From Eledone cirrhosa (Eukaryota), in contig OZ024742.1 of the NCBI GenBank assembly GCA_964016885.1, positions 271,188,001 to 271,252,000 of the forward strand: 64,000 nucleotides of DNA, written 5' to 3'. Positions 8,360 to 53,259 of this stretch are shown in pieces. How positions within the stretch are numbered: position 1 is the stretch's first letter; each line of letters starts with the position of its first letter. Made by a program: the position numbers and the translations under genes. The notes under the pieces were generated by a model that searched no databases, had not been told where the DNA came from, and was given only the letters and a program-made list of their open reading frames with translations.

Positions 8360-8415
8360 TTTTAATATAGAGAGATTCTACAGGACTAGAACTGTTTCAT
8401 TCTTTAGAAATCATC

Positions 8416-8464
8416 GATTCCTGATGATTTCTAAAGAATGAAACAGTTCTAGTCCTGTAGAATC
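8416..8464 (+). ncRNA. Compact type I hammerhead ribozyme inside an inverted duplication 8357-8482 (degenerate homologue 57137-57185, minus)
   Basis: GATTC-CTGATGA-TTTCTAAAGAAT-GAA-ACAG(ttctagtc)CTGT-A-GAATC. Confidence 0.75.
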
Positions 8465-8561
8465 TCATCTATATTAAAACTTTTATATTCTGCAATGTTT
8501 TGAGTACCTTACTTACTGTGGTTACCTCCTATTCAACCCGGAATAACGTATATATATATAT

Positions 8562-8949
8562 ATATTTATTCAGGTTTGAGGTTCACCACTGTATAGAGCT
8601 GGTCTATTCCGTATGGTCAATCGTAATGTAATAATATAGAGAGTACTCAACGTAAAGCAGTTCAACCGTCTTTGTTTTTGTAGTTGGTGGTGCTATTACG
8701 GAGTTAAATATTATAATGACGTCACTCGAGGGCGACCGGCTAAGGTAGAGGGTGCAAGATAGCGGTCGCCCTCGGGTCCTCGATTTTCAGCCTCATGGAT
8801 TTCATCTATTACATTCACGTATTATATTTCGAATACCTGATGATATCACCGGATTCATACGGAACCCGGTCATTGAAATGATCATAGTATAATAAACCTT
8901 TCAAGGATTTACACAAATCCAGCCTCCTCTCATTTCATTATAATATTAT
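8562..8949 (+). mobile_element. Non-autonomous PLE pLTR-like element with HHR (8833-8890) and 5' inverted tail
   Basis: 8721-8949 matches 17545-17770. 8562-8719 is the reverse complement of 17758-17915. The HHR reads ATAC-CTGATGA-..ACCGG..CCGGT..-GAA-ATGATCAT-A-GTAT. Confidence 0.75.
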
Positions 8950-8969
8950 ATATATATGTATATATATAT

Positions 8970-10442
8970 AAATTGAAACAAAATGAAAACGAAATTTCAT
9001 TTCTCACTCTTAGTATGGCACTTACTTAAATGTAAGTATGCATGTATACGTACATACATATATGTATACAGACGTACACTAGCATGCACATATATATATA
9101 TATATATATACATATATATATACATATGCATACAGGTACACATACATATATGCACGTATCAGTTTAGCGGCGCTTATTATAACGTCGCTTTGTTCGTTTG
9201 TAAACAAACTGAACAGCCTGAATTTATGCCATACGGTGTTAAGGCAACCACGTCACCTTTTTGTTCAACACTGACACAGGAACGATGTACTAGTTTCAAG
9301 CTTGTTAGCTATCATCAGCACCGTTTACCCATCTGCCAGATAGTTGAACGTTCGAAAGTATATACTTTCCTTATGAAAATTAACGGCTGAGCAGCCTAAT
9401 TTGCATATTGAGTGAGTTAAATCGGTCAGGCATACCGAAAACGATAAATTGTATATGCATGCTACTATACGTCTGTATACATATATGTATGTACGTATAC
9501 ATGCATACTTACATTTAAGTAAGTGCCATACTAAGAGTGAGAAATGAAATTTCGTTTTCATTTTGTTTCAATTTATCGTTTTCGGTATGCCTGACCGATT
9601 TAACTCACTCAATATGCAAATTAGGCTGCTCAGCCGTTAATTTTCATAAGGAAAGTATATACTTTCGAACGTTCAACTATCTGGCAGTTGGGTAAACGGT
9701 GCTGATGATAGCTAACAAGCTTGAAACTAGTACATCGTTCCTGTGTCAGTGTTGAACAAAAAGGTGACGTGGTTGCCTTAACACCGTATAGCATAAATTC
9801 AGGCTGTTCAGTTTGTTTACAAACGAACAAAGCGACGTTATAATAAGCGCCGTTAAACTGATACGTGCATATATGTATGTGTACCTGTATGCATATGTAT
9901 ATATATATGTATATAAATATATATATATGCATGCTACTATACGTCTGTATACATATACATGCATACTTACATTTAAGTAAGTGCCATACTAAGAGTGAGA
10001 AATGAAATTTCGTTTTCATTTTGCTTCAATTTATCGTTTTCAGTATGCCTGACCGATTTAACTCACTCAATATGCAAATTAGGCTGCTCAGCCGTTAATT
10101 TTCATAAGGAAAGTATATACTTTCGAACGTTCAACTATCTGGCAGATGGGTAAACGGTGCTGATGATAGCTAACAAGCTTGAAACTAGTACATCGTTCCT
10201 GTGTCAGTGTTGAACAAAAACGTGACGTGGTTGCCTTAACACCGTATGGCATAAATTCAGGCTGTTCAGTTTGTTTACAAACGAACAAAGCGACGTTATA
10301 ATAAGCGCCGTTAAACTGATACGTGCATATATGTATGTGTACCTGTATGCATATGTATATATATATGTATATATATATATATATAATCATGCTACTATAC
10401 GTCTGTATACATATATGTATGTACGTATACATGCATACTTAC

Positions 10443-10446
<4 letters not shown>
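8970..10446. repeat. Retrozyme family B array (~458-bp unit, ~3.2 units, divergent inversion at ~9451)
   Basis: One minus-strand unit (HHR 9281-9325) is followed by two plus-strand units (HHR 9695-9739 and 10153-10197). Flanked by (TA)n. Confidence 0.9.
9695..9739 (+). ncRNA. Type I hammerhead ribozyme, family B (also 10153-10197 +, 9281-9325 -)
   Basis: AACGGTG-CTGATGA-TAGC(TAACAA)GCTT-GAA-AC(TA)GT-A-CATCGTT, with a GUA cleavage triplet. Helix I extends via GTTCAAC/GTTGAAC and CTGGCA/TGTCAG. Confidence 0.88.
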
Positions 10447-10502
<56 letters not shown>

Positions 10503-10504
<2 letters not shown>

Positions 10505-13338
10505 TTGGATTTCTGATTGGACTGTCACCTCGAAACTGGATACCAACCTGGACTACACCTGAACTTCCACCATGAATTATTTCATATCCATGAAATTTTC
10601 TTCTGATTCTTGCATTTAAATATTCCCCGACTCTGTACCATTTTCCCTCTACTTCAATCGTCTTACACCACCTTTTTCTCACCCGTCTATATTTCACTTC
10701 CACCCCAGTACCTTCAACATTCCCAATCACAAATCTTTTCTCCGCTAGCTCCATTCTGCCCTCAAGCGGTTCCTTCAACCTCTCCCCCACCTATATGCAT
10801 CCAATTCTCCCTGCATCACTCTAACCTCATCTTCACCAAAACACGATACAACAGTCACATCACATTCTTAAGTCGTTGTATCCATCGCCACCTCATTCCC
10901 GGCGGTTTCCGCCTCAAGTTTCACTCCACCTCTTACTCTCCCCCCACCACTGAGCCCATCCTCCCCCACACCTCTCGGCAGCACATGCGGGCGATCATTC
11001 AATCAACTCTCGCCCATATCTGTCCTCTCGACCGAGATCTCCCCAAGGCCTACCTCCATCTCTACTCCACTTGCCACCCTTTCCTCGCCGAATCCCTTAT
11101 CCAATTCATCCTTTATCTCAATCGGCTTCTTTTTAATTTCCTCACTTCCGCCAAAAAACATAAACTCGAATCTCTCCGATCGCGGCTGCCGTCACCACCC
11201 ATACTCACATCACCTCCAACCCTCACCCCTCTATCCAGTCACCTACCACTGAATCTACGCAAGTTTTGCCCAACCAACTTGACCCCTCCACCTCCGCATT
11301 TTTCACCACCTCACGTCCCTGCACTGTAGTCACCAACCCCAACCCTACCACACCCCGAAGCTGTGCGCTCCCTCCTCGCTCGTGGTTTGCGTTTTATACC
11401 AACCACATCTACCTGCTACAGGTTCCGCACACGTGCCGAGATTGAATGGTTCTTCCGTCGACTAAAGCTGAAAGCTGTTTTTCACAAAACGCTATCATCG
11501 ACACAGTCGGATGACTCCACTCATCTCAGTCGCCGGCAATCACATTGGACACCAAGCTCTGCCCAGTTCGGCACCCTCGACTCCTTTGTCGATACTTCCC
11601 GGCTTACTGTGAATCGGTTCCTTTTCCACCAGCATTCTCGTGGCTCTAACATCACGCGAACTGAGCTCTCCGCTCTTCGCAACATTCGGTGTCGCGAATA
11701 CATTGTCATGAAACCCGCTGACAAAGGTGGCGCTGGCTGTGGTGGTTTGGAGCGCTGACCTCTATAGGGCTGAGGCTCTCCGCCAGCTTCACAATACCCT
11801 TTTTTACCGCCCTTTAACATCCGACCCCACTCCTGGCTATCAACAACTCGTGTCCTCCACCATCCACGAGCTCATCTTCTCCTCTCACTTACCCCCACAG
11901 CCACCAACCTTATTGTACGCACCCCTCGCGCACTAACCATCTATTTCCTCCCCAAAATACACAAACAAATAATCCTGGCCGCCCCATCGTTTCTGTGTGC
12001 AACTGCCCCAACGAGATAATTTCTGAATATTTAGACACCATCCTCGCCTCGTTGGTCAGCAATCTCCCGTGCCAGAGCCACGATACAAATGCCTTTAGAA
12101 TCTTCAACTCGTTCTCCTTCCCACCTGGTCCCTCACTCCTTCTCTTTACCAGCATTTTTTTAGATTTAGCCCCTACCCCTTGCCCAGCACTACTCCGTCT
12201 GGCTGAGCTTGTTCTCCCCCTTAATGGATATCCTTTTACCAGCAGATCTCTTGGTTAGCGATGGGAACTAGAATGGTTCCAAACTATGCCAAATTGTTTG
12301 TTGGCTACGTCGAAGCCCATATCTTCTCCCAGTACGCTGGACCGACTCCTTAGCTATACAGTTGTTATATCGACGACTGTATCGGCGCCACCTCTCTATC
12401 ACGAGAATAGCTCGACTGTTTTCTTTCTTTTGTCCAATCTTTCTATCCTCCTCTCAATTTCACCACCTACGTCTCCGATTCTTCTGTCGTTTTTCTAGTT
12501 AACTATCTATCTATTAATCACTCGCACTACACCCTCTCTACTTCCATATCCATTAAACCAACAGACTCGCAGTCTTATCTCGATTCACCTCCTCCCATCC
12601 AACCCACACAAAACACTCCATACCCTATTCCCAATTCTTCCGTCTTTGTCGACTCTGTAGCCAGGACGACAATTTCGAAACCCATTCCCTTCGCATGGCT
12701 TCTAGCTTCATCTGGCGTGGGTACCACCCCCGCCCCTTGATCCAAGCAGCTCTCAAACGCACCCGTGAAACTGACCGTACCAGAGCTCTTTCAACTGACC
12801 CCCGCCCTCCCAACACACGTGTTACTTTCCCTCTCACCTACCACCGCATCACCCTACCACTCCGGCGACATATCCTCCGTTACTTCCGTATCCTCTCTTC
12901 TGACCCCGTCACTTCTCGCTTTTTTCCAAACCCACCCATTACTGCTTTTATATTTTTGGATACTCCTGTCGCCCGTCATTTCTGTTCTCCTGGTCATTCT
13001 TCCCTACATGTTTCAGTCCTGGGTGTCCTTTAATATCATGGATCACAGGCCTCGCGCACTAGGAATGAACTAAGTCTGATTCGCCGCCTTGGGTCTTATT
13101 CTCCTCTTGGACTCAAATCACCTCCCCGATTTCTCTAATACCCCGTCCATTATCACACTCCTTGATTCCTATCGATTTCACTTAATCATTTGCAGCTTCT
13201 CTTACCACTAATACATGCCGATACACACACTTATATTAACATACATTTGCTCATAGCTTCGTACTTACATGCACACACACTCTATTACACACATATACAC
13301 ACACATTTCTTCTTCGCCTCGTACGGACCTGTAATAAC

Positions 13339-13398
<60 letters not shown>

Positions 13399-13830
13399 AC
13401 CCACACACACACACATACACACACATACACACATACACACACACACACACACAGAGATACAGACACATACACAAACACATGATTACGCACGTGCTCAAGT
13501 AGAGCTCTTTTTAAAAAGGTTTTGTTTTCCATTTCAGGCAGACGCGCTCATGCACTTTTCTAAAAGAATATAATACACAAAACGACAGCACCAATAGTTT
13601 TCCAAGAGATGTCAACATGAATGGACCTGTTATTTTTATCTAAAGAAATGTTTTCCAATTCCATCCCACCGGTCCCCTCAATCTATTTTATTTCTCATTC
13701 TTTCTTCTGATGAAGGACTAGCGTCCGAAACATTACGACCCTCTTCCTGCTATATCAAGCATTAACCTAATATATACATTCCATATACTGTACCGATTGT
13801 GTTGTTATTTCTGTTTACCTTTTACACACA
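10503..13830 (+). mobile_element. Decayed Penelope-like retroelement (RT pseudogene), 3' UTR with CA microsatellite and HHR-like core at 13707-13731
   Basis: Frameshifted motifs include GLRFIPT, KPADKGG-AVVVW, PGRPIVS, MGT..PNYA, YIDD, YSQFFRLCRLCS and PVARHF. The 3' end has CTGATGA-A-GGAC(TAGC)GTCC-GAAAC. Confidence 0.85.
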
Positions 13831-13845
13831 TATATATATATATAT

Positions 13846-14173
13846 ACTAACTCACTCGATATGCAAATTAGGCTGCTCAGCCGTTAAAATGGATAAGGAA
13901 AGTATATTCTTTCAAACGTTCAATCATCTGGCAGAAAGGTATACGATGCTGACGATAGCTAATAAGCTTGAAACTAGTACATCGTTCCTGTGTTAGTGTT
14001 GACCAAAGGGGCGACGATGGTTGCCTGAACAATGTACGGCGTAATTCGGGCTGTTTGTCTGTTTACAAACAAATAAACCGAACATTATAATAAATGTTCG
14101 GTAAACCGATACGTACATGTATATATATATATGTGTGCATGTATATATGTATGCATGTATATATACATACATG

Positions 14174-14226
<53 letters not shown>

Positions 14227-14406
14227 GTATCGGTTTACCGAACATTTATTATAATGTTCGGTTTGTTTGTTTGTAAACAAACAAATATATACATACTACT
14301 GTACATCTGTATACATATATGTATGTACGTATACATACATACTTACATTTAAGTATCAGCCGTATTAAGAGTTAGAAATGAAATTTCGTTTCATTCTATT
14401 CCATTT
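13846..14406 (+). mobile_element. Solo retrozyme family B monomer with intact HHR (13943-13985)
   Basis: ATGCAAAT at 13861, then ACGATG-CTGACGA-TAGC(TAATAA)GCTT-GAA-AC(TA)GT-A-CATCGT. There is an internal inverted duplication (14062-14118 / 14221-14278). The copy ends in (TA)n. Confidence 0.85.
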
Positions 14407-14989
14407 ATATATATATATATATATAAATCAGGAAAGAAAGTTGACATGGTTTGCTATACAAAGAATGTTTTTAATCTCATAGCTGACAATTGTTTCTCTG
14501 AACTGGTAGGTCTAGAGATCGCTATTCACTTATTTTCGCGTTACTCGATCGCCAATACAAAATTATAACCAGTCAGATGTTCGGAGCATGCGAGAATGAA
14601 GAAAATACACAGGCAAGAAAAGAATATACAGGCTACTATATGAAGTAGTAATGGCATTCAATTAGAACAATAACAACAATTACAACATTGCTATTAATAA
14701 ATTATTTAAGGAGACCCTGACATTACTTAGGTGGGGGGTGGGGGTATAATGTATCTAACGTTACGGCGTGTAAAACTAGCTGTCATGAGGCAAAAATAAG
14801 CGTTTGGCATGTACAGAGTATCGAAGTGTATACCAATTTTAAATTATAAAGATAAGCTAGTGTTTACAGTCTTTCTCTTCATCTTCAATCGTATACATGA
14901 GTGGGACAACACTGTCAAAGCTAAATAGTTGTTGAGTTAATACAGAGGTTAACGAAGTAATATACGCATATATTTACACACACACACAC

Positions 14990-19169: not shown

Positions 19170-19371
19170 TGTGTGTGTGTGTGTATGTATATGTTTGTGT
19201 ATGTTTGTATATGTGTATATTTATGTGTGTGTGAGTGTATGTGAAGGTGTCTGTAGACACCTGAAATATAGCTTAAAAGAAAACATGACAATAAGGAGAG
19301 GCACCCAATATTTGAACTGGTTTATAGAATTATCTCTGCGTTTGTCACTCTAAGTAACCATCTTACAGTAG

Positions 19372-20324
19372 AATGTATATATATACATACATAGAGTAGT
19401 ATGTATATATATATATACATACATGCACACATATATATACATGTATGTATGGATTCACCGAACATTTATTATAATGCTCGGTTTGTTTGTAAACAATCGT
19501 CCCGAATTAAGCCGTACAGTGTTTAGCAACCATCGTTGCCCTTTTGTTCAACACTGACAAAGGAACGATGTACTAGTTTCATGCTTATTAGCTATTGTTA
19601 GCTCCGTGTACCTTCATGCCAGATGATTGAACGTCTGAAAGTATTTACTTACCTTATGCATATTAACGGCAACCTAATTTGCATATCGAGTGAGTTAATC
19701 GGCCGGATGCACCGAGAACTATAAATGGAAAAAATGAAACGAAATGTCATGTGTCACTCTTACTACGGCTGTTACTTAAATATAAGTATGTAAACGTACA
19801 TACATATATGTATACAGACGTACAGTAGTATGTATATGTATACATACATGCACATATATATATATATATGTACGTATGGATTCACCGAACATTTATTATA
19901 ATAGAGTGAGAAATTAACTCACTCGATATGCATATTAGGCTGCTCAGCCGTTAATATGCATAAGGAAAGTATATACTTTCAGACGTTCAATCATCTGGCA
20001 CGAAGGTATACAGTGTTGGCGATATCTAAAAATGCTTGAAACTAGTACATCTTTCCTTTGTCAGTGTTGAACAATAGGGCAACGATGGTTGCTAAACACT
20101 GTGCGGCTTAATTCGGGATGTTTGTTTAGAAACAAACCGAGCATTATAATAAGTGTTCGGTGAATCCATACGTACATGTATATATATGTGTGCATGTACG
20201 TATATATATATATATATATACATACTACTGTACGTCTGTATACATATATGTATGTACGTATACATACTTATATTTAAGTAACAGCCGTAATAAGAATGAG
20301 AAATGAAATTTCGTTTCATTTTTT

Positions 20325-20328
<4 letters not shown>
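19372..20328. mobile_element. Two degenerate retrozyme family B units in divergent orientation (HHR cores mutated)
   Basis: A minus unit spans ~19372-19900 and a plus unit ~19914-20328. Both retain GAAACTAGTACATC, but the CTGATGA core is mutated (CTAACAA, TTGGCGA). Confidence 0.8.
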
Positions 20329-20402
<74 letters not shown>

Positions 20403-20874: not shown

Positions 20875-20926
<52 letters not shown>

Positions 20927-22127
20927 AATTAAATTAAAAATGTACATCCACATATGTATACTGAAATACTAGTATGCATATGAATACACACACGTGTACA
21001 TATGTAGATGTACCGAGTTTTTCACTGGACACTTTACTGTGAGTGTCCAGCTATTCTGTATGTAAACACACAGACAAACCGGTTTTTAGAGTCATACTGG
21101 TTTTCGAGGAAACACCTTTCCTCTATTCTCCAGAAAGCCAGACAAGGAATATTGGACTAGTTTCGATGTTGTTACATCTCATCAGCAATATTTACCTATC
21201 TTCCGGCCTTTCTAGAGAATCGTAAAAGAACATATCGTTATATGCTTTTTCTATGAAAATTAGTAGTGGGCAGACTAATTTGCATAGAGCGTGAGTACGT
21301 ACCGGTTCAGCGGAGACGATAAAAACAAATAACGAAACGAAATTAAATTTCGTTTCGTTTGTAACTCACTTTTGTATGACTGACGCTTAAACAATTAAAT
21401 TAAAAATGTACATCCACATATGTATACTGAAATACTAGTATGCATATGAATACACACACGTGTACGTATGTAGATGTACCGAGTTTTTCACTGGACACTT
21501 TACTGTGAGTGTCCAGCTATTCTGTATGTAAACACACAGACAAACCGGTTTTTAGAGTCATACTGGTTTTCGAGGAAACACCTTTCCTCTATTCTCCAGA
21601 AAGCCAGACAAGGAATATTGGACTAGTTTCGATGTTGTTACATCTCATCAGCAATATTTACCTATCTTCCGGCCTTTCTAGAGAATCGTAAAAGAACATA
21701 TCGTTATATGCTTTTTCTATGAAAATTAGTAGTGGGCAGACTAATTTGCATAGAGCGTGAGTACGTACCGGTTCAGCGGAGACGATAAAAACAAATAACG
21801 AAACGAAATTAAATTTCGTTTCGTTTGTAACTCACTTTTGTATGACTGACGCTTAAACAATTAAATTAAAAATGTACATCCACATATGTATACTGAAATA
21901 CTAGTATGCATATGAATACACACACGTGTACATATGTAGATGTACCGAGTTTTTCACTGGACACTTTACTGTGAGTGTCCAGCTATTCTGTATGTAAACA
22001 CACATTTAATTGTAAACACACATTTAATTGTTTAAGCGTCAGTCATACAAAAGTGAGTTACAAACGAAACGAAATTTAATTTCGTTTCGTTATTTGTTTT
22101 TATCGTCTCCGCTGAACCGGTACGTAC

Positions 22128-22185
22128 TCACGCTCTATGCAAATTAGTCTGCCCACTACTAATTTTCATAGAAAAAGCATATAAC
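22128..22185 (+). promoter_or_regulatory. Putative snRNA-type upstream promoter block (octamer + PSE-like + TATA-like) in each unit
   Basis: ATGCAAAT at 22137-22144 is followed by TAATTTTCATAGAAAAAGCATATA. Family B conserves this as ATGCAAAT...TAATTTTCATAAGGAAAGTATATA while most of the rest of the unit diverges. Confidence 0.5.
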
Positions 22186-22229
22186 GATATGTTCTTTTAC
22201 GATTCTCTAGAAAGGCCGGAAGATAGGTA

Positions 22230-22274
22230 AATATTGCTGATGAGATGTAACAACATCGAAACTAGTCCAATATT
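22230..22274 (+). ncRNA. Type I hammerhead ribozyme, family A (representative copy)
   Basis: AATATTG-CTGATGA-GATGT(AACA)ACATC-GAA-AC(TA)GT-C-CAATATT. The GUC cleavage site is predicted after 22267. Helix I extends to 22203-22296. Confidence 0.92.
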
Positions 22275-25200
22275 CCTTGTCTGGCTTTCTGGAGAATAGA
22301 GGAAAGGTGTTTCCTCGAAAACCAGTATGACTCTAAAAACCGGTTTGTCTGTGTGTTTACATACAGAATAGCTGGACACTCACAGTAAAGTGTCCAGTGA
22401 AAAACTCGGTACATCTACATATGTACACGTGTGTGTATTCATATGCATACTAGTATTTCAGTATACATATGTGGATGTACATTTTTAATTTAATTGTTTA
22501 AGCGTCAGTCATACAAAAGTGAGTTACAAACGAAACGAAATTTAATTTCGTTTCGTTATTTGTTTTTATCGTCTCCGCTGAACCGGTACGTACTCACGCT
22601 CTATGCAAATTAGTCTGCCCACTACTAATTTTCATAGAAAAAGCATATAACGATATGTTCTTTTACGATTCTCTAGAAAGGCCGGAAGATAGGTAAATAT
22701 TGCTGATGAGATGTAACAACATCGAAACTAGTCCAATATTCCTTGTCTGGCTTTCTGGAGAATAGAGGAAAGGTGTTTCCTCGAAAACCAGTATGACTCT
22801 AAAAACCGGTTTGTCTGTGTGTTTACATACAGAATAGCTGGACACTCACAGTAAAGTGTCCAGTGAAAAACTCGGTACATCTACATATGTACACGTGTGT
22901 GTATTCATATGCATACTAGTATTTCAGTATACATATGTGGATGTACATTTTTAATTTAATTGTTTAAGCGTCAGTCATACAAAAGTGAGTTACAAACGAA
23001 ACGAAATTTAATTTCGTTTCGTTATTTGTTTTTATCGTCTCCGCTGAACCGGTACGTACTCACGCTCTATGCAAATTAGTCTGCCCACTACTAATTTTCA
23101 TAGAAAAAGCATATAACGATATGTTCTTTTACGATTCTCTAGAAAGGCCGGAAGATAGGTAAATATTGCTGATGAGATGTAACAACATCGAAACTAGTCC
23201 AATATTCCTTGTCTGGCTTTCTGGAGAATAGAGGAAAGGTGTTTCCTCGAAAACCAGTATGACTCTAAAAACCGGTTTGTCTGTGTGTTTACATACAGAA
23301 TAGCTGGACACTCACAGTAAATGTCCAGTGAAAAACTCGGTACATCTACATATGTACACGTGTGTGTATTCATATGCATACTAGTATTTCAGTATACATA
23401 TGTGGATGTACATTTTTAATTTAATTGTTTAAGCGTCAGTCATACAAAAGTGAGTTACAAACGAAACGAAATTTAATTTCGTTTCGTTATTTGTTTTTAT
23501 CGTCTCCGCTGAACCGGTACGTACTCACGCTCTATGCAAATTAGTCTGCCCACTACTAATTTTCATAGAAAAAGCATATAACGATATGTTCTTTTACGAT
23601 TCTCTAGAAAGGCCGGAAGATAGGTAAATATTGCTGATGAGATGTAACAACATCGAAACTAGTCCAATATTCCTTGTCTGGCTTTCTGGAGAATAGAGGA
23701 AAGGTGTTTCCTCGAAAACCAGTATGACTCTAAAAACCGGTTTGTCTGTGTGTTTACATACAGAATAGCTGGACACTCACAGTAAAGTGTCCAGTGAAAA
23801 ACTCGGTACATCTACATATGTACACGTGTGTGTATTCATATGCATACTAGTATTTCAGTATACATATGTGGATGTACATTTTTAATTTAATTGTTTAAGC
23901 GTCAGTCATACAAAAGTGAGTTACAAACGAAACGAAATTTAATTTCGTTTCGTTATTTGTTTTTATCGTCTCCGCTGAACCGGTACGTACTCACGCTCTA
24001 TGCAAATTAGTCTGCCCACTACTAATTTTCATAGAAAAAGCATATAACGATATGTTCTTTTACGATTCTCTAGAAAGGCCGGAAGATAGGTAAATATTGC
24101 TGATGAGATGTAACAACATCGAAACTAGTCCAATATTCCTTGTCTGGCTTTCTGGAGAATAGAGGAAAGGTGTTTCCTCGAAAACCAGTATGACTCTAAA
24201 AACCGGTTTGTCTGTGTGTTTACATACAGAATAGCTGGACACTCACAGTAAAGTGTCCAGTGAAAAACTCGGTACATCTACATATGTACACGTGTGTGTA
24301 TTCATATGCATACTAGTATTTCAGTATACATATGTGGATGTACATTTTTAATTTAATTGTTTAAGCGTCAGTCATACAAAAGTGAGTTACAAACGAAACG
24401 AAATTTAATTTCGTTTCGTTATTTGTTTTTATCGTCTCCGCTGAACCGGTACGTACTCACGCTCTATGCAAATTAGTCTGCCCACTACTAATTTTCATAG
24501 AAAAAGCATATAACGATATGTTCTTTTACGATTCTCTAGAAAGGCCGGAAGATAGGTAAATATTGCTGATGAGATGTAACAACATCGAAACTAGTCCAAT
24601 ATTCCTTGTCTGGCTTTCTGGAGAATAGAGGAAAGGTGTTTCCTCGAAAACCAGTATGACTCTAAAAACCGGTTTGTCTGTGTGTTTACATACAGAATAG
24701 CTGGACACTCACAGTAAAGTGTCCAGTGAAAAACTCGGTACATCTACATATGTACACGTGTGTGTATTCATATGCATACTAGTATTTCAGTATACATATG
24801 TGGATGTACATTTTTAATTTAATTGTTTAAGCGTCAGTCATACAAAAGTGAGTTACAAACGAAACGAAATTTAATTTCGTTTCGTTATTTGTTTTTATCG
24901 TCTCCGCTGAACCGGTACGTACTCACGCTCTATGCAAATTAGTCTGCCCACTACTAATTTTCATAGAAAAAGCATATAACGATATGTTCTTTTACGATTC
25001 TCTAGAAAGGCCGGAAGATAGGTAAATATTGCTGATGAGATGTAACAACATCGAAACTAGTCCAATATTCCTTGTCTGGCTTTCTGGAGAATAGAGGAAA
25101 GGTGTTTCCTCGAAAACCAGTATGACTCTAAAAACCGGTTTGTCTGTGTGTTTACATACAGAATAGCTGGACACTCACAGTAAAGTGTCCAGTGAAAAAC

Positions 25201-26805
25201 TCGGTACATCTACATATGTACACGTGTGTGTATTCATATGCATACTAGTATTTCAGTATACATATGTGGATGTACATTTTTAATTTAATTGTTTAAGCGT
25301 CAGTCATACAAAAGTGAGTTACAAACGAAACGAAATTTAATTTCGTTTCGTTATTTGTTTTTATCGTCTCCGCTGAACCGGTACATACTCACGCTCTATG
25401 CAAATTAGTCTGCCCACTACTAATTTTCATAGAAAAAGCATATAACGATATGTTCTTTTACGATTCTCTAGAAAGGCCGGAAGATAGGTAAATATTGCTG
25501 ATGAGATGTAACAACATCGAAACTAGTCCAATATTCCTTGTCTGGCTTTCTGGAGAATAGAGGAAAGGTGTTTCCTCGAAAACCAGTATGACTCTAAAAA
25601 CCGGTTTGTCTGTGTGTTTACATACAGAATAGCTGGACACTCACAGTAAAGTGTCCAGTGAAAAACTCGGTACATCTACATATGTACACGTGTGTGTATT
25701 CATATGCATACTAGTATTTCAGTATACATATGTGGATGTACATTTTTAATTTAATTGTTTAAGCGTCAGTCATACAAAAGTGAGTTACAAACGAAACGAA
25801 ATTTAATTTCGTTTCGTTATTTGTTTTTATCGTCTCCGCTGAACCGGTACGTACTCACGCTCTATGCAAATTAGTCTGCCCACTACTAATTTTCATAGAA
25901 AAAGCATATAACGATATGTTCTTTTACGATTCTCTAGAAAGGCCGGAAGATAGGTAAATATTGCTGATGAGATGTAACAACATCGAAACTAGTCCAATAT
26001 TCCTTGTCTGGCTTTCTGGAGAATAGAGGAAAGGTGTTTCCTCGAAAACCAGTATGACTCTAAAAACCGGTTTGTCTGTGTGTTTACATACAGAATAGCT
26101 GGACACTCACAGTAAAGTGTCCAGTGAAAAACTCGGTACATCTACATATGTACACGTGTGTGTATTCATATGCATACTAGTATTTCAGTATACATATGTG
26201 GATGTACATTTTTAATTTAATTGTTTAAGCGTCAGTCATACAAAAGTGAGTTACAAACGAAACGAAATTTAATTTCGTTTCGTTATTTGTTTTTATCGTC
26301 TCCGCTGAACCGGTACGTACTCACGCTCTATGCAAATTAGTCTGCCCACTACTAATTTTCATAGAAAAAGCATATAACGATATGTTCTTTTACGATTCTC
26401 TAGAAAGGCCGGAAGATAGGTAAATATTGCTGATGAGATGTAACAACATCGAAACTAGTCCAATATTCCTTGTCTGGCTTTCTGGAGAATAGAGGAAAGG
26501 TGTTTCCTCGAAAACCAGTATGACTCTAAAAACCGGTTTGTCTGTGTGTTTACATACAGAATAGCTGGACACTCACAGTAAAGTGTCCAGTGAAAAACTC
26601 GGTACATCTACATATGTACACGTGTGTGTATTCATATGCATACTAGTATTTCAGTATACATATGTGGATGTACATTTTTAATTTAATTGTTTAAGCGTCA
26701 GTCATACAAAAGTGAGTTACAAACGAAACGAAATTTAATTTCGTTTCGTTATTTGTTTTTATATATATATACATATATATATATACATATATATATACAT
26801 ATATG

Positions 26806-38484: not shown

Positions 38485-39320
38485 GGCTAGAGCAGGATAT
38501 ACTGATAAAATTATGTACATCGATAATAGACAAACTAACCGAAATAACAACAATTTTAATCACAGTAACAACTTTAACAACTATAATAGAAAGCATTACA
38601 ATAATTCCCAAAACCAGAAAAGAAATAGAACTAGAAATATAATATGGTTTGCCCCCCCCCCCCCCTTTCTCACTAAACATTAAAACCCACATCGCTAAAC
38701 TATTTTTTAATGCTCTTGACAAACGCTTCCCTAGAACACATAAGTATCACTCAATTTTCAATAGACATACCATAAAATTAACATACTCGTCCACCAAAAT
38801 GTTAGCACAAAATATTAATAGAATAAATAATAGGAATCTAAAACCTAGCCAAAATACCGAAAATAGCCTAAACAATATTCAAGTAAACAACTGTAACTGT
38901 AGAGATAGATCTAAATGTCCGCTAAATAACAATTGCTTAGTTAAAAATATAATATACAACTGTAATGTTAAAACTGACTTAAATTCTTTTAATTATGTTG
39001 GTTCCACCTCGACAGAATTTAAACTTCGCTATAATAATCACAAGAATTCTTTCACGGATCCAAGTAAAAAATCTTCAACATCACTAGCAGGTTTACTCTG
39101 GCAACTTAAACATGATAACGTTGGATATTAGATGGTTTGGAATATAGTATCAAAAGGGATTCCTTTTAATTCCTCTTCTGAGACATGTGACCTCTGCGCG
39201 GAGGAGATATTCTTTATACTAAAATCTAAAAATTCCCTGAATTTACGGACCAATTTATTCAGCTGCTGCAGACATAGATTGAACTCAACTTTTAAATATA
39301 AATATAAATTTAAAATGTAG
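38483..39320 (+). pseudogene. Naiad-like PLE linker + GIY-YIG endonuclease (5'-truncated, frameshift and stop)
   Basis: RNIIWF.PP(F)S, IFNRHTIKLTYS, CNCRDRSKCPLNNNC, IIYNC...YVGSTSTEFKLRYNNHK, CDLCAEE and CRH. Confidence 0.88.
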
Positions 39321-49808: not shown

Positions 49809-50323
49809 AAAGAATAGAGGTGTAACACACAAGTTATTATATATTGGTAAACGGAATAGAAAATGCTGACAAATTGTTCACAGTTGAAAAATGGTTTAAT
49901 TAGGAATAAAAGAGTATTAGTGATTGTATGGGTTAGTATTCAGTTGTGGTTTTAAGTTTTTATGTTTTTACCGGTTGCGCATTTCTAAATGCTTTTCAAA
50001 AATAATTTTGAGATAGAGTGTCCGTGCTGTTTGCTCTGATCTGATTAGTTTTGGGAATTCTACCTGTTTTTATGTTTAAAAAATGGCTCCAGCGTTATTT
50101 TTGTGTTGCAAAAATGCTTGTGGTCAAAACAATTTTGATTGGTCGGTAGAGGTCATGTAAATGTAAAAAGTTGATTTTGCGCCAAGACTGTTTTTATGTT
50201 AAAATGTTAGAAAAGTGGCTCCAGCAAAAATTATGGTCAAAACAATTTTGATTGGTCGGTAGAGGTCATGTGGATAAAAAATTGGTTTTGCGCCAAGATT
50301 GAGAGATGACTCTTTCACAACAA

Positions 50324-50367
<44 letters not shown>

Positions 50368-50436
50368 TAGTAGTAGTAAGGTGTTCGATGCTGCGACAAT
50401 AGCCACCAGCGATGTGTGTCAAATGGCTATTAAGAT

Positions 50437-50478
<42 letters not shown>

Positions 50479-50771
50479 ACATACACACAGCAGAGTCATT
50501 CGAAGGTCAAAAGATATTGTTCAGCTTTTGTCTTATACGGAGAAGTGCGTGTGTGTGTGTGTGTGTGTATAAGTCTCTTTGTATGTTGATGTACGCGTGT
50601 GCATGTGTTTGTGCATACATGTGTGTGCGTGTGTGTGTGCGTGTGTGGGTGGACCAGTATTTTTTTCCCCCCTGGTAAAATGGTGTACATTATTCGATTT
50701 TTTCAGGAAAATCGGTTCTCTTAATAGAACATCAACAATCTTAACAATAAAAGGTGTGAAATGATATTCAC

Positions 50772-50816
<45 letters not shown>

Positions 50817-52787
50817 TTTCACTACATATATACATATATATATATACATATACACATACACACACATGCACATATATTTTTTTGTATTGCACCATAGAGC
50901 ATGTGTGTTTACGTGTGTCATTGTGTTTATATGTGGGTAGAGATGTGTGCTGATGTAGGTATGTATGTTGACGTGTGTATGTTGTGGGTTCGTCTTAGGG
51001 AGAAGTGTTTAGACGGGGTCCGTATTTGTTAATGAAGTAAGATTCCTTGCTGATGCGCTGGGTGTGGGTGGCATTATCTTTAAATTTGTAGAGGGGAAAG
51101 ATTCTGAAGTTGGGATGATTTGGGGCGGCGCAGGTATCAATGTGTTCACTCAGTGGTATTTTCCTGTATTCCCGTATTTTAATTTGGGATCTATGGACAG
51201 TCATGCGTTGGCGGAGGCTGTTTTTGGTCTGGCCTATGTATTGTTCTCGACAACCTGAACAAGTTAATACATATATTAAATTTTCCGATGCACATGTGAA
51301 ATTGTGTTTTACTATAAAACGTTGTCCATCTTTGAAATAGAATTCCGAACCCTCTATTAGGTTGATGCAAATGCCACAGTTGGGTCTATCGCATTTTTTT
51401 ACTGTGGGTTTCGTTGTTGTGGTTGGCAGTACTTTGGCATGTGTTAAGATGTTTTTCATTGACTTGGATTGTCTTTTGCTCTTTATGATATCGTGTGTTC
51501 GTAGAATTTGGTTCATTCTATGGTCCTTTTTCAATACAGGGATGTTCTGGAGGATGGTGTCAAAGGCCTCGTTGTTGAGGGGGTTGTGTGTGGAGATGTA
51601 TGGAAGAGCTTTTAGTTTTGGTTGATTTACTTTAGGGTGTCTAAGGTCCTGGGTACTGAGTTTTAGGGCACGTTGGATTCCATTGTCAATTAGTGATGCA
51701 GGGTAGTCCCTGCCTATGAGTGTGTCCTTTAGTTCTTGTAGCCGTAAGTAGCAGATGTTTTTATTGGAGACTATAGTACAGATTCTCTTGGCTAAGTTGT
51801 AGGGAATATTAATTTTAACGTGTCTAGGGTGGCAAGAGTTGAAGGGGAGGTATTGCTTGGAGTCTGTGGGCTTGTAGTATATGTCTGTTTCTATTTTTTT
51901 GTTATGGATCTTAATGAGGATGTCGAGGAAGGGGAGTTGTTGATGGCTGTATTCCATCGTGAAGTTAATATTTGTGTTGAGCCCATTTATAAGGGTGTGA
52001 AATTCTTTAAGTTTTCCGATGTTTTCGTGCCAAAGGATGAAGCAGTCATCAAGATATCGCTTCCAGTTCCTTTCAATGTGTAAGTGGAGGGTGTTTCCAA
52101 ATTTGTTTAGGACTTTAGTGTAGAGGGTGATTTCCAGGTATCCCATGACTAGATTGGCATACGTAGGGGCTGTTTTCGTTCCCATAGCGGTCCCAGATTT
52201 CTGCCTGTAGGGTTTGTTATTGAAAACGAAGTAATTGTTCTCCAAGATAAATTTGAGTCCCTCTATCACGAATTCTTTTTTGATGCGTTGTGGGAGTTCA
52301 TTGTGGAAGTTATCCAGCCAGAATTGGATAGCTTCTATTCCTAGGTTGTGGGGGATGTTGGAGTATAGGTTGACTACATCGAACGTCACTAGTAGGGTTT
52401 GTTCAGAAAGTGGCATATTAGGGAGGTGATTGAGCATATCTAGGTCGTCCCTTATATAGCTTTTGATGTGCTTGAGGAAGGGTTTGAGAAGGGTATCAAT
52501 GAAGTTGCTAAGACGGTGCGTTTCGCAAGCGGGGCCTGCTATTATTGGTCTTAATTTGAGATCATTGGGTGAGGGGACATTGATGACTATGTCAGATCTG
52601 AGCAAACAGCACGGACACTCTATCTCAAAATTATTTTTGAAAAGCATTTAGAAATGCGCAACCGGTAAAAACATAAAAACTTAAAACCACAACTGATACT
52701 AACCCATACAATCACTAATACTCTTTTATTCCTAATTAAACCATTTTTCAACTGTGAACAATTTGTCAGCATTTTCTATTCCGTTTA

Positions 52788-52795
<8 letters not shown>
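49804..52795 (-). mobile_element. 5'-truncated Neptune-like PLE with inverted pLTR segment (52592-52795) at its 5' end
   Basis: An RT+EN ORF, a 3' UTR of ~1.2 kb, and 52592-52795 as the reverse complement of ~49840-50043. Both ends lie in (TA)n. Confidence 0.9.
50995..52590 (-). CDS. Penelope-like reverse transcriptase + GIY-YIG endonuclease (uninterrupted but N-terminally truncated)
   Basis: LRPIIAG, TFDVVNLYSNIP, QKSGTAMGTKTAPTYAN, WKRYLDD, FLDI, YLPFNSCHP, CDRPNCGIC and LIYVLTCSGCREQYIGQT. The first ~18 aa of the listed ORF come from the inverted pLTR. Confidence 0.9.
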   Translation of the reverse strand: MVINVPSPNDLKLRPIIAGPACETHRLSNFIDTLLKPFLKHIKSYIRDDLDMLNHLPNMPLSEQTLLVTFDVVNLYSNIPHNLGIEAIQFWLDNFHNELPQRIKKEFVIEGLKFILENNYFVFNNKPYRQKSGTAMGTKTAPTYANLVMGYLEITLYTKVLNKFGNTLHLHIERNWKRYLDDCFILWHENIGKLKEFHTLINGLNTNINFTMEYSHQQLPFLDILIKIHNKKIETDIYYKPTDSKQYLPFNSCHPRHVKINIPYNLAKRICTIVSNKNICYLRLQELKDTLIGRDYPASLIDNGIQRALKLSTQDLRHPKVNQPKLKALPYISTHNPLNNEAFDTILQNIPVLKKDHRMNQILRTHDIIKSKRQSKSMKNILTHAKVLPTTTTKPTVKKCDRPNCGICINLIEGSEFYFKDGQRFIVKHNFTCASENLIYVLTCSGCREQYIGQTKNSLRQRMTVHRSQIKIREYRKIPLSEHIDTCAAPNHPNFRIFPLYKFKDNATHTQRISKESYFINKYGPRLNTSP

Positions 52796-52824: not shown

Positions 52825-53259
52825 GACAAATTTGAACAGGGACAAAACAGAGAAGCAGTACAACGAATGTTTATTAATTTCACGCTCTGGAGAGTGGGGT
52901 GTTGGTGGGGGACGACGTTTCGGGCATAAGCCTTTCCTCAGGTGAGAAGTGTGTGGAAACAGAGTTCAAAGGGTGTGTAGGGGAGTGGTGGAGAGACATA
53001 TAGCGAAAGGAAACGGTGCGAATGAAAAAATAAAAAAATAAAGATAAAAATAAAAATAAAGCATGATCAATATACAAGGAAGGAAATAAATTTAAATATA
53101 AAAGCATGATCAAAATAAACTGAAATTAAAAGGGGGGTAAAACAGGTGGTGGAAGGGTGTGGGGTGTGTAGGGGTGGTGGTGGGTGAAGTGGGAGAGGGA
53201 GACAAGGTGTCCGAGCGGGGAGGGCTGAAGGTGGTGTGTGTGTGTAGGTGTACGTGTGT

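Follow-up and report, generated by a model that had tools for sequence, protein, structure and literature searches.

A high-copy tandem hammerhead retrozyme of Eledone cirrhosa with a U6-like promoter candidate and Penelope-like insertion ends

Introduction

The closest described systems are the non-LTR retrozymes of coral, mussel and axolotl (Cervera and de la Pena 2020, PMC7229834). In the parts of that paper used here, they are tandem, low-GC, non-coding repeats with one type I hammerhead per unit of 170 to 400 nt and a self-paired monomer, and they occur in tens of thousands of copies together with Penelope-like elements. Axolotl HHR_Amex1 has a palindromic helix III, and HHR_Amex2 has a U.U at the base of helix II; the HHR_Amex2 monomer was cleaved to 22% in an hour and the dimer was cleaved better (PMC7229834). 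In metazoan hammerheads, a short helix III with a palindromic loop corresponds to a dimer-type arrangement (PMC4209133). A 2020 review, in the portion drawn on here, describes metazoan retrozymes as seemingly devoid of a promoter and of a motif indicating the mobilizing element (PMC7761336). Internal promoters are described for two other tandem hammerhead repeats, newt satellite 2 (snRNA-type, polymerase II) and Schistosoma Sm-alpha (polymerase III, SINE-like) (PMC2220036, PMC6765202). In the Schistosoma repeats, the promoter of one unit transcribes the next unit (PMC6765202).

Penelope-like elements leave inverted 5'-truncated copies and a 30- to 40-bp tail at one end, and are biased toward microsatellites (Craig 2021, bioRxiv 10.1101/2021.04.23.441226). 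This tail spans the interval from one internal reverse transcription start site to the other, and both target strands are cut and extended (Frangieh 2024, PMC11167929). A preprint proposes that animal retrozymes are non-autonomous Penelope derivatives and reports cleavage in only one of nine Xenopus retrozyme dimers (Li, Clavereau, Pollet 2026, 10.64898/2026.07.22.740005). It argues from elements that co-occur and from similar pseudo-LTRs in vertebrates, chiefly Xenopus; parts one to three of the five contain no insertion-end, inversion or promoter analysis and no mollusc in the taxon list. For cephalopods, the squid genome paper counted 235 hammerhead matches without analyzing them (PMC6962438, relevant part).

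Here we describe repeats from a 64,000-nucleotide stretch of Eledone cirrhosa DNA (contig OZ024742.1, positions 271,188,001 to 271,252,000), called the window below. It is rich in (TA)n and (CA)n and belongs to a 3.0-Gb assembly of about 30 very long contigs. The repeats share the properties listed above for the coral, mussel and axolotl retrozymes, while their 420- to 490-bp units lie at or above the described size range and are known from DNA alone. Family B resembles HHR_Amex2 in its helix II base and HHR_Amex1 in its palindromic helix III. In contrast to what the consulted portion of the review reports, the repeats carry a promoter-like module and fixed double 3' ends. Like newt satellite 2 and Sm-alpha, they are tandem hammerhead repeats; unlike in these, as far as the sources used describe them, the upstream motif is specific to U6, U6atac and MRP upstream regions and is accompanied by a TATA box (for newt, a comparison by description). 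With the endonuclease-bearing Penelope-like elements (Poseidon, Neptune and Naiad) they share partial tandems, an inverted 5'-truncated copy, a one-end tail, a microsatellite target and two internal reverse transcription start sites, here deduced from the ends. They differ from the described Penelope-like elements in having no ORF, a tail of 58 to 70 bp instead of 30 to 40 bp, a canonical instead of a minimal hammerhead, and no homologous pseudo-LTR among 60 loci. Compared with the evidence of the 2026 preprint, insertion ends offer a more mechanistic line.

The ribozyme part is known biology and ordinary for animals; the families themselves are new members of the non-LTR retrozymes. A literature search found neither families A and B nor any retrozyme with a U6-type promoter described, with the reservation that cephalopod examples may sit in supplements. 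Judged by this search, the putative internal U6-type promoter and the double-end insertion signature would be new beside the known retrozyme class.

Results and Discussion

Layout of the family B insertion

Positions 8970-10446 hold a single insertion of three ~458-bp family B units, two direct and one inverted, in a (TA)n target tract. Every unit has a type I hammerhead fold, with the core CTGATGA at 9702 (+), 10160 (+) and 9318 (-), and the units diverge from each other at 3-4 of 304 bases. That the unit at 8970-9451 is inverted relative to the other two corrects the first-pass annotation of this DNA. The features below were read from the sequence unless another basis is given.

8943..8969, no strand: left flank, (TA)n-rich, target tract
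8970..9451, minus: inverted arm, ~1 unit
8970-9027, minus: tail (~58 bp) of the inverted arm, with its outer 3' end at end site 2
9288..9318, minus: hammerhead core, helix II and helix III of the inverted unit
9396..9407, minus: promoter-like 12-mer TATGCAAATTAG of the inverted unit
9452..10446, plus: direct arm, 5'-truncated, ~2.1 units
9517..9574, plus: internal tail copy bounded by end sites 1 (9516) and 2 (9574); basis, a hairpin and a family A homologue
9613..9624, plus: 12-mer of the first direct unit; basis, match to the host U6/U6atac/MRP upstream motif
9656..9661, plus: TATA-like box, 43 nt after the 12-mer start
9671..9757, plus: extended type I hammerhead of the first direct unit; basis, fold and covariation
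10071..10082, plus: 12-mer of the second direct unit
10129..10215, plus: second direct unit, extended hammerhead with its core at 10160 and cleavage predicted after 10190
10447..10502, no strand: right flank, (AT)n

The direct arm has no tail; its outer 3' end lies at end site 1 (ACATTT, then an AT repeat). The internal tail copy is likely the region recognized by the reverse transcriptase, and the TATA-like box would place an RNA start near 9686. The hammerhead at 9671..9757 comprises distal helices, a GGG/CCT extension, a UA bulge, helix I, the core (9702-9708), helix II with a U.U base, the loop UAACAA and the palindrome ACTAGT, with predicted cleavage between 9732 and 9733.

The hammerhead fold

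The first-pass annotation had proposed that family B keeps the ribozyme architecture of its sister family A by compensatory change. All strings that it quoted, GAAACTAGTA included, were found in place. Indeed, helix I is AACGGTG (9695-9701) with CATCGTT (9733-9739) in B and AATATTG/CAATATT in A, loop II of B is TAACAA, and B has the distal helix GTTCAAC (9671-9677)/GTTGAAC (9751-9757). The two families do share their architecture; the whole unit is collinear, with 269 of 480 columns identical, and A and B are therefore sisters by descent, not unrelated sequences with one fold.

Several details needed revision. The RGG-type bulged extension is present, but the copy at 9702 reads GTT-GGG and not GAT-GGG. 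In the solo copy, ACGATG (13943-13948) and CATCGT are as quoted and had been taken to turn a G-U pair into A-U; the seventh pair, A-U, is also replaced there by U.U. Of 66 B insertions, 40 carry U.U at the seventh helix I pair and 27 carry A-U, so that the U.U of the solo copy is the common state and not decay. The base of helix II, not mentioned earlier, is a U.U mismatch in 66 of 66 B insertions and G-C in family A. Finally, the letters AC-TA-GT given as helix III are present, but a 2-nt loop is unable to close, and ACTAGT is a palindrome. Helix III is palindromic across six families, with five different palindromes: ACTAGT (A and B), ACGCGT (C), ATGCAT (D1), ACATGT (F) and ACAATTGT (H). Such a helix III would suit cleavage as a dimer.

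The core is that of a canonical type I hammerhead (CUGANGA, GAAA, UH), and helix I (~6 bp) and helix II (~4 bp) are backed by double changes. The UA bulge and a YAAYAA-like loop are kept in families A, B, C, F and H, and both are altered together in D. A tertiary contact between loop II and the helix I bulge, as postulated before, is plausible, judged solely from these conserved letters (UA bulge, UAAYAA loop). In family B, the U.U at the base of helix II and the weak helix III together predict low activity of the monomer. In the replicating lineage, the ribozyme is likely to be functional.

Selection on RNA structure

We sampled 100 insertions containing 320 distinct genomic copies; 70 of the insertions are B, 17 are C (two of which are damaged B) and 13 are A. 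The sample is non-random, consisting of the 30 best B matches, the pattern matches listed first for contig C1 and a small number of neighbors. We aligned 15 haplotypes of A, B and C (those seen in at least two insertions and three that were seen once; one C haplotype with a gap was excluded). Pairing was kept in 96% of cells, and 11 of the 15 pairs showed double changes. The covariation score of these 15 related haplotypes was 0.62; shuffles gave 0.25, and slid controls did not exceed 0.15. Both the cells paired and the covariation score exceeded all 500 shuffles and all slid controls; the number of pairs with double changes was reached by 20 of the 500 shuffles. Since the haplotypes are related, these ranks are not probabilities, and since they come from few lineages, they represent a handful of covariation events. 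With D and E added to the alignment, 94% of cells were paired, and 11 of 13 pairs had double changes.

Within family B, 66 of the 70 insertions could be placed in ungapped register and analyzed at 25 pairs. Changes common to at least three insertions kept pairing in five of five cases, among them a flip from G-U to U-G that 19 insertions carry, whereas private changes broke it in 25 of 37 (shared versus private, Fisher p=0.007). Changes present in exactly two insertions broke pairing in 10 of 12 cases. This pattern is expected if copies decay after insertion while the replicating lineages retain the fold. Furthermore, none of the shared changes fell in the 11 core columns of the 66 B insertions, a count that is biased because part of the sample was picked by the core pattern. 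The double changes across A, B and C and the shared changes within B support the earlier claim of selection on RNA structure.

The predicted circular monomers were strongly self-paired (z of -6.0 for B and -9.5 for A, 40 shuffles each). Within the B circle so predicted, the inner pairs of helix I had a probability of only 0.18-0.28. One may instead suppose a weak or protein-assisted hammerhead that stems from a Penelope pseudo-LTR and a template of uncleaved multimeric RNA, with no circle. The U.U at the helix II base of B would fit this, and the tandem arms fit a multimeric template equally well. Mutants of the anole Penelope ribozyme, which needed protein, left in vitro insertion unaffected (PMC11167929), and eight of nine Xenopus dimers stayed uncleaved (10.64898/2026.07.22.740005). 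However, the hammerheads found here are canonical and not minimal, double changes keep their extended helix I, their core is free of shared changes in the partly core-picked B sample, and the whole predicted monomer is self-paired like that of circular retrozymes. In addition, the U.U variant of axolotl is active in cleavage, more so in dimer form (PMC7229834). We regard this combined reading as unlikely and lean toward a circular template.

Element class, copy number and families

The earlier view that the motifs do not arise by chance was borne out genome-wide: the A/B core pattern (core, UAAYAA loop and GAAACTAGT) had 37,922 exact matches, and the reversed control had none. A second pattern, with a different helix III, gave 13,912 genome matches (control, 0); among the first 100 listed, these were mostly the 310-bp family C. 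An Rfam search gave no hammerhead match that reached the gathering threshold; in clan CL00010, HH9 scored 18.5-19.4 bits, below its cut-off of 52. Many Rfam miRNA matches were rejected as TA-repeat artefacts.

The units are tandem and non-coding, have a GC content below 50% and one hammerhead each, are predicted to fold into a self-paired monomer, and occur as dispersed copies in insertions scattered over many chromosomes. On these grounds, the locus is almost certainly a hammerhead non-LTR retrozyme, a class that the first-pass annotation did not name; it also passed over the promoter-like module and the Penelope-type ends. In a single raw RNA run, no reads fell on B, and likewise none on the ORF of a young Penelope-like family of this genome, so that the run does not bear on expression.

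Family C (loci L080, L128-L143) is a 310- to 311-bp retrozyme with the palindrome ACGCGT, U.U or A-U at the helix II base, long arrays and divergent arms, and without the 12-mer. Families D1, D2, E, F and H (loci L225-L242) are hammerhead families with a common 12-mer; in D, the helix I internal loop and loop II are altered jointly, and H and F appear old and decayed. One family A insertion elsewhere (G000:C1:5738327-5752443; L159, L160) has 31 units in one arm and one short unit in the other. The window itself holds three further A or B insertions:

13848..14408, plus: older B-subfamily insertion, 80% identical, 12-mer 13860-13871, core 13949; basis, sequence
19364..20332, no strand: divergent, decayed B-subfamily insertion, ~75% identical, damaged cores; basis, sequence
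20922..26762, no strand: family A insertion of 466-bp units, 2.3 inverted and 10.2 direct; basis, units 99.8-100% identical

The 3' part of the first is rearranged, with an inverted piece, and its tail ends at ~14408. The family A insertion ends at site 1 on the left and site 2 on the right, and its 12-mer lies 101 nt upstream of each core.

Insertion ends and mobilization

The (TA)n ends of family B fell on two positions of the unit: site 1 (ACATTT) accounts for 42 ends and site 2 for 44, with five elsewhere. The sites are ~58 bp apart in B and 70 bp in A; family C has two ends ~30 bp apart. When both ends of an insertion were found, there was one of each site in 24 of 25 B and three of three A insertions. 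Among the 100 insertions, those with two arms were divergent in 33 cases, convergent in none and complex in two. The arms are asymmetric and 5'-truncated, and their inner 5' ends are scattered.

These data bear on spread at the DNA level, by satellite amplification or as a MITE-like foldback, in which the RNA fold would be incidental. Long near-identical arrays, such as those of family A (99.8-100%), and inverted arms would be compatible with it. But arms truncated at scattered 5' points with 3' ends fixed at two sites, the retention of G-U and U-G pairs, and insertions on many chromosomes speak against such spread, which we consider highly improbable. Unequal crossing-over may lengthen arrays after insertion.

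By contrast with DNA-level spread, mobilization by Penelope-type machinery accounts for an inverted 5'-truncated arm, a tail at one end, two fixed 3' ends and an AT-rich target, all of which were found. From this pattern of ends, Penelope-type mobilization of the retrozyme is very probable. We compared the retrozyme with 60 Penelope loci (30 of one young family plus the 30 best of 150 listed GIY-YIG hits). None of the 60 had a pseudo-LTR homologous to the A/B tail, and a BLAST search of the A, B and C tails and units against them had only neighboring B insertions among the matches listed. The tail of the young Penelope-like family showed no homology to the A or B tail. A short CATT..TATTCC likeness near the ends of this Neptune-like family, of B subfamilies and of C was rejected, the end sites being different.

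A 5'-truncated copy of this young Penelope-like family, with RT and GIY-YIG, lies in the window at 49841-52790 (-), with an ORF at 50998-52647. The family has many copies that are 97-99% identical, an open 784-aa frame and a CxxxxCxxC linker, which we take to be of Neptune type. Its insertions show an inverted arm, an inverted pseudo-LTR, a ~40-bp one-end tail and (TA)n flanks. Hammerheads are regarded as general in Penelope-like elements; a regular-expression search found none in the pseudo-LTR of the 49841-52790 family. Retrozyme and Penelope insertions nest mutually in TA tracts, including the TA-rich part of the B unit (L028, L058, L038, L080).

A promoter-like module shared with host U6-class genes

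Upstream of the ribozyme, A and B have TATGCAAAT(T/G)AG and a TATA box, and TATGCAAATTAG is the best-conserved block outside the ribozyme. The distance from the 12-mer to the core is 89 nt in B (81 in one subfamily) and 101 nt in A; over families A, B, D, E, F and H, the 12-mer with TATA stands 88-106 nt upstream of the core.

snRNA promoters carry an octamer, and the motif recurs before host RNA genes. In three unrelated U6 loci it was found at -77 and -78 (two single loci) and, with one change, at -79 (one array type); it also occurred at -78 in the MRP gene and, with one change, at -78 in the best U6atac locus. TATA lies at -30 in all of these genes. The motif was absent upstream of U1 (19 loci with 12 distinct upstreams), U2 (13 loci, of which 12 were searched for exact octamers and one was inspected by eye) and the RNase P RNA gene of this genome, which instead have (A/G)TCAGT near -57 in common. 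It was also absent from a second U6 array type (5 of the 12 best loci), and from four extra U6 matches and seven of eight U6atac loci that resemble dispersed retrocopies; 10 of the 14 extra U6 matches were left unscored because their 5' end was unclear.

By shuffling, the exact motif was obtained in 4 of 5000 permutations of the B or A unit. The motif-plus-TATA pattern had 22,724 genome matches, against 331 for the control. Among the first 100 of these matches, 18 were non-B loci picked by motif and TATA alone; 13 of them had a hammerhead score of at least 7 (control, 2/3000) and 16 a score of at least 4 (control, 37/3000). It was this search that led to families D1, D2, E, F and H; the strong hammerheads of the 13 loci lay 88-106 nt downstream.

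As in U6 genes, a host-type upstream element is followed by TATA. The spacing, however, is not that of the host genes, being 43-44 nt in A, B, D, F and H against 47-49 nt in the latter; only E, with 48 nt, agrees. While the 12-mer-to-TATA distance is near-constant, the distance from TATA to the ribozyme varies between families.

In an RNA hairpin, the 12-mer also forms the 5' arm opposite TAATTTTCAT, and one copy type alters both arms jointly. It might therefore be kept as a hairpin arm, or as a relic, in a retrozyme whose RNA arises by read-through from outside promoters. In line with this, the pairing partner of ATGCAAATTA in A and B is TAATTTTCAT or TAATATGCAT, that of AAATGAG in D is CTCATTT, the spacing to TATA is 3-5 nt below that of host genes, and the abundant 310- to 311-bp family C does without the 12-mer. 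The review, in its consulted portion, likewise sees metazoan retrozymes as seemingly promoterless (PMC7761336). On the other hand, the 5' arm is constant in six families while its partner changes, which favors a role at the sequence level. Moreover, the motif stands at a constant position upstream of U6, U6atac and MRP, genes at which only a weak hairpin is predicted (-0.8 to -2.9 versus -8.9 kcal/mol in B), and TATA keeps its near-constant distance from the 12-mer and not from the ribozyme. Maintenance as a mere hairpin arm or relic is improbable in our view, and it is reasonably likely that the 12-mer acts as a promoter.

Which polymerase such a promoter would recruit is a separate matter. 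Polymerase III is not expected to read easily through runs of at least five T. Of 23 tandem B insertions, 13 contain only T4, 10 contain T5-T10 in every unit, and seven reach at least T7; family A has T5 in five of five insertions, and host U6 genes end in T5-T9. The insertion ends lie past the T-runs of the units. Recruitment of polymerase II, which would read through the T-runs and make long multimers, would explain runs of 7-10 T within tandem units and ends beyond them, as well as the altered spacing, and newt satellite 2 offers a precedent (cited in PMC2220036, PMC6765202). Against this, U1 and U2 of this genome carry a different upstream motif, and among the host RNA genes compared the 12-mer occurs only before U6, U6atac and MRP. 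In other animals, these three are polymerase III type 3 genes. We consider polymerase II rather unlikely and assign polymerase III, in preference to II, a little less than an even chance. The 5' ends of arms show no pile-up at the predicted start other than a weak cluster, with 7 of ~52 ends at -14 to -24.

As side observations, the RNase P RNA upstream (L126) contains ATCAGTGG near -60, a motif of the U1/U2 type, instead of the U6/MRP one, an indication of transcription by polymerase II. TATA-like letters near -30 are also seen in U1 (L205-L223) and U2 (L093-L104). In the U6 array variant (L087, L088, L090-L092), the region from about -130 to -30 is replaced, so that the 12-mer is lost and the TATA box kept.

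Proposed mechanism

Combining these lines, we judge it likely that the locus is a high-copy, non-coding tandem retrozyme with its own U6/MRP-type upstream promoter that is copied into (TA)n by a Penelope-like enzyme. The 12-mer and TATA would start an RNA just 5' of helix I. The predicted start, ~9686, is within the extended helix I, on its 5' strand, and lies downstream of the distal arm at 9671-9677. As such a promoter precedes the site at which it starts RNA, it would be inherited only if transcription continues through the following unit. Conservation extends to the distal helices, and arms often reach upstream through the promoter into the previous unit; the copied RNA would therefore have to contain the promoter, either as a multimer or as a circle. 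Two hammerheads, paired through their palindromic helix III, might then excise a promoter-containing monomer, and a host ligase could close it into a circle, by analogy with the coral, mussel and axolotl retrozymes. A Penelope-type RT/GIY-YIG protein would nick both strands of the target, and reverse transcription would start internally at the two sites and go round the template, producing from one to more than 30 units.

A broader version is tentative, and we put it at somewhat below even: a clade of at least six ribozyme-repeat families may have internalized a host U6-type promoter, which is kept through ribozyme cutting and circles, with a Penelope enzyme inserting from two sites. Both open points of retrozyme biology, the promoter and the mobilizer, leave directly testable marks at this locus, namely a 12-nt motif common to host U6-class genes and two fixed ends that resemble the Penelope reverse transcription starts seen in vitro. 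If the mechanism is correct, the ribozyme has a reason, since an upstream promoter would survive retrotransposition only by way of a multimer or circle; ordinary SINEs are unable to inherit such a promoter. The polymerase signal and the mobilizing machinery of an animal retrozyme would then have been named from sequence. As a by-product, the motif defines a candidate U6 promoter with which small RNAs might be expressed in animals of this group.

Other elements in the window and dispersed U6 copies

Dispersed promoterless U6 and U6atac copies (L144, L145, L148, L149, L198, L199) stand in several cases right after (TA)n or (TG)n, and one is fused to a repeat found in the window at 8500-8550. They are possibly retrocopies made by the same machinery.

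A further hammerhead family in the window, with a long helix II and a TATA-like helix III, occurs at 417 (-), 7126 (-), 40929 (+) and 44583 (+); two of these hammerheads lie near broken Penelope-like ORFs (1450-2240 and 38643-39131). A decayed Penelope-like ORF at 10600-13100 is followed by a short hammerhead at 13707, and other short hammerheads are located at 52940 (-) and 8860. In the inverted repeat at 8375-8470, helix II resembles that of family C.
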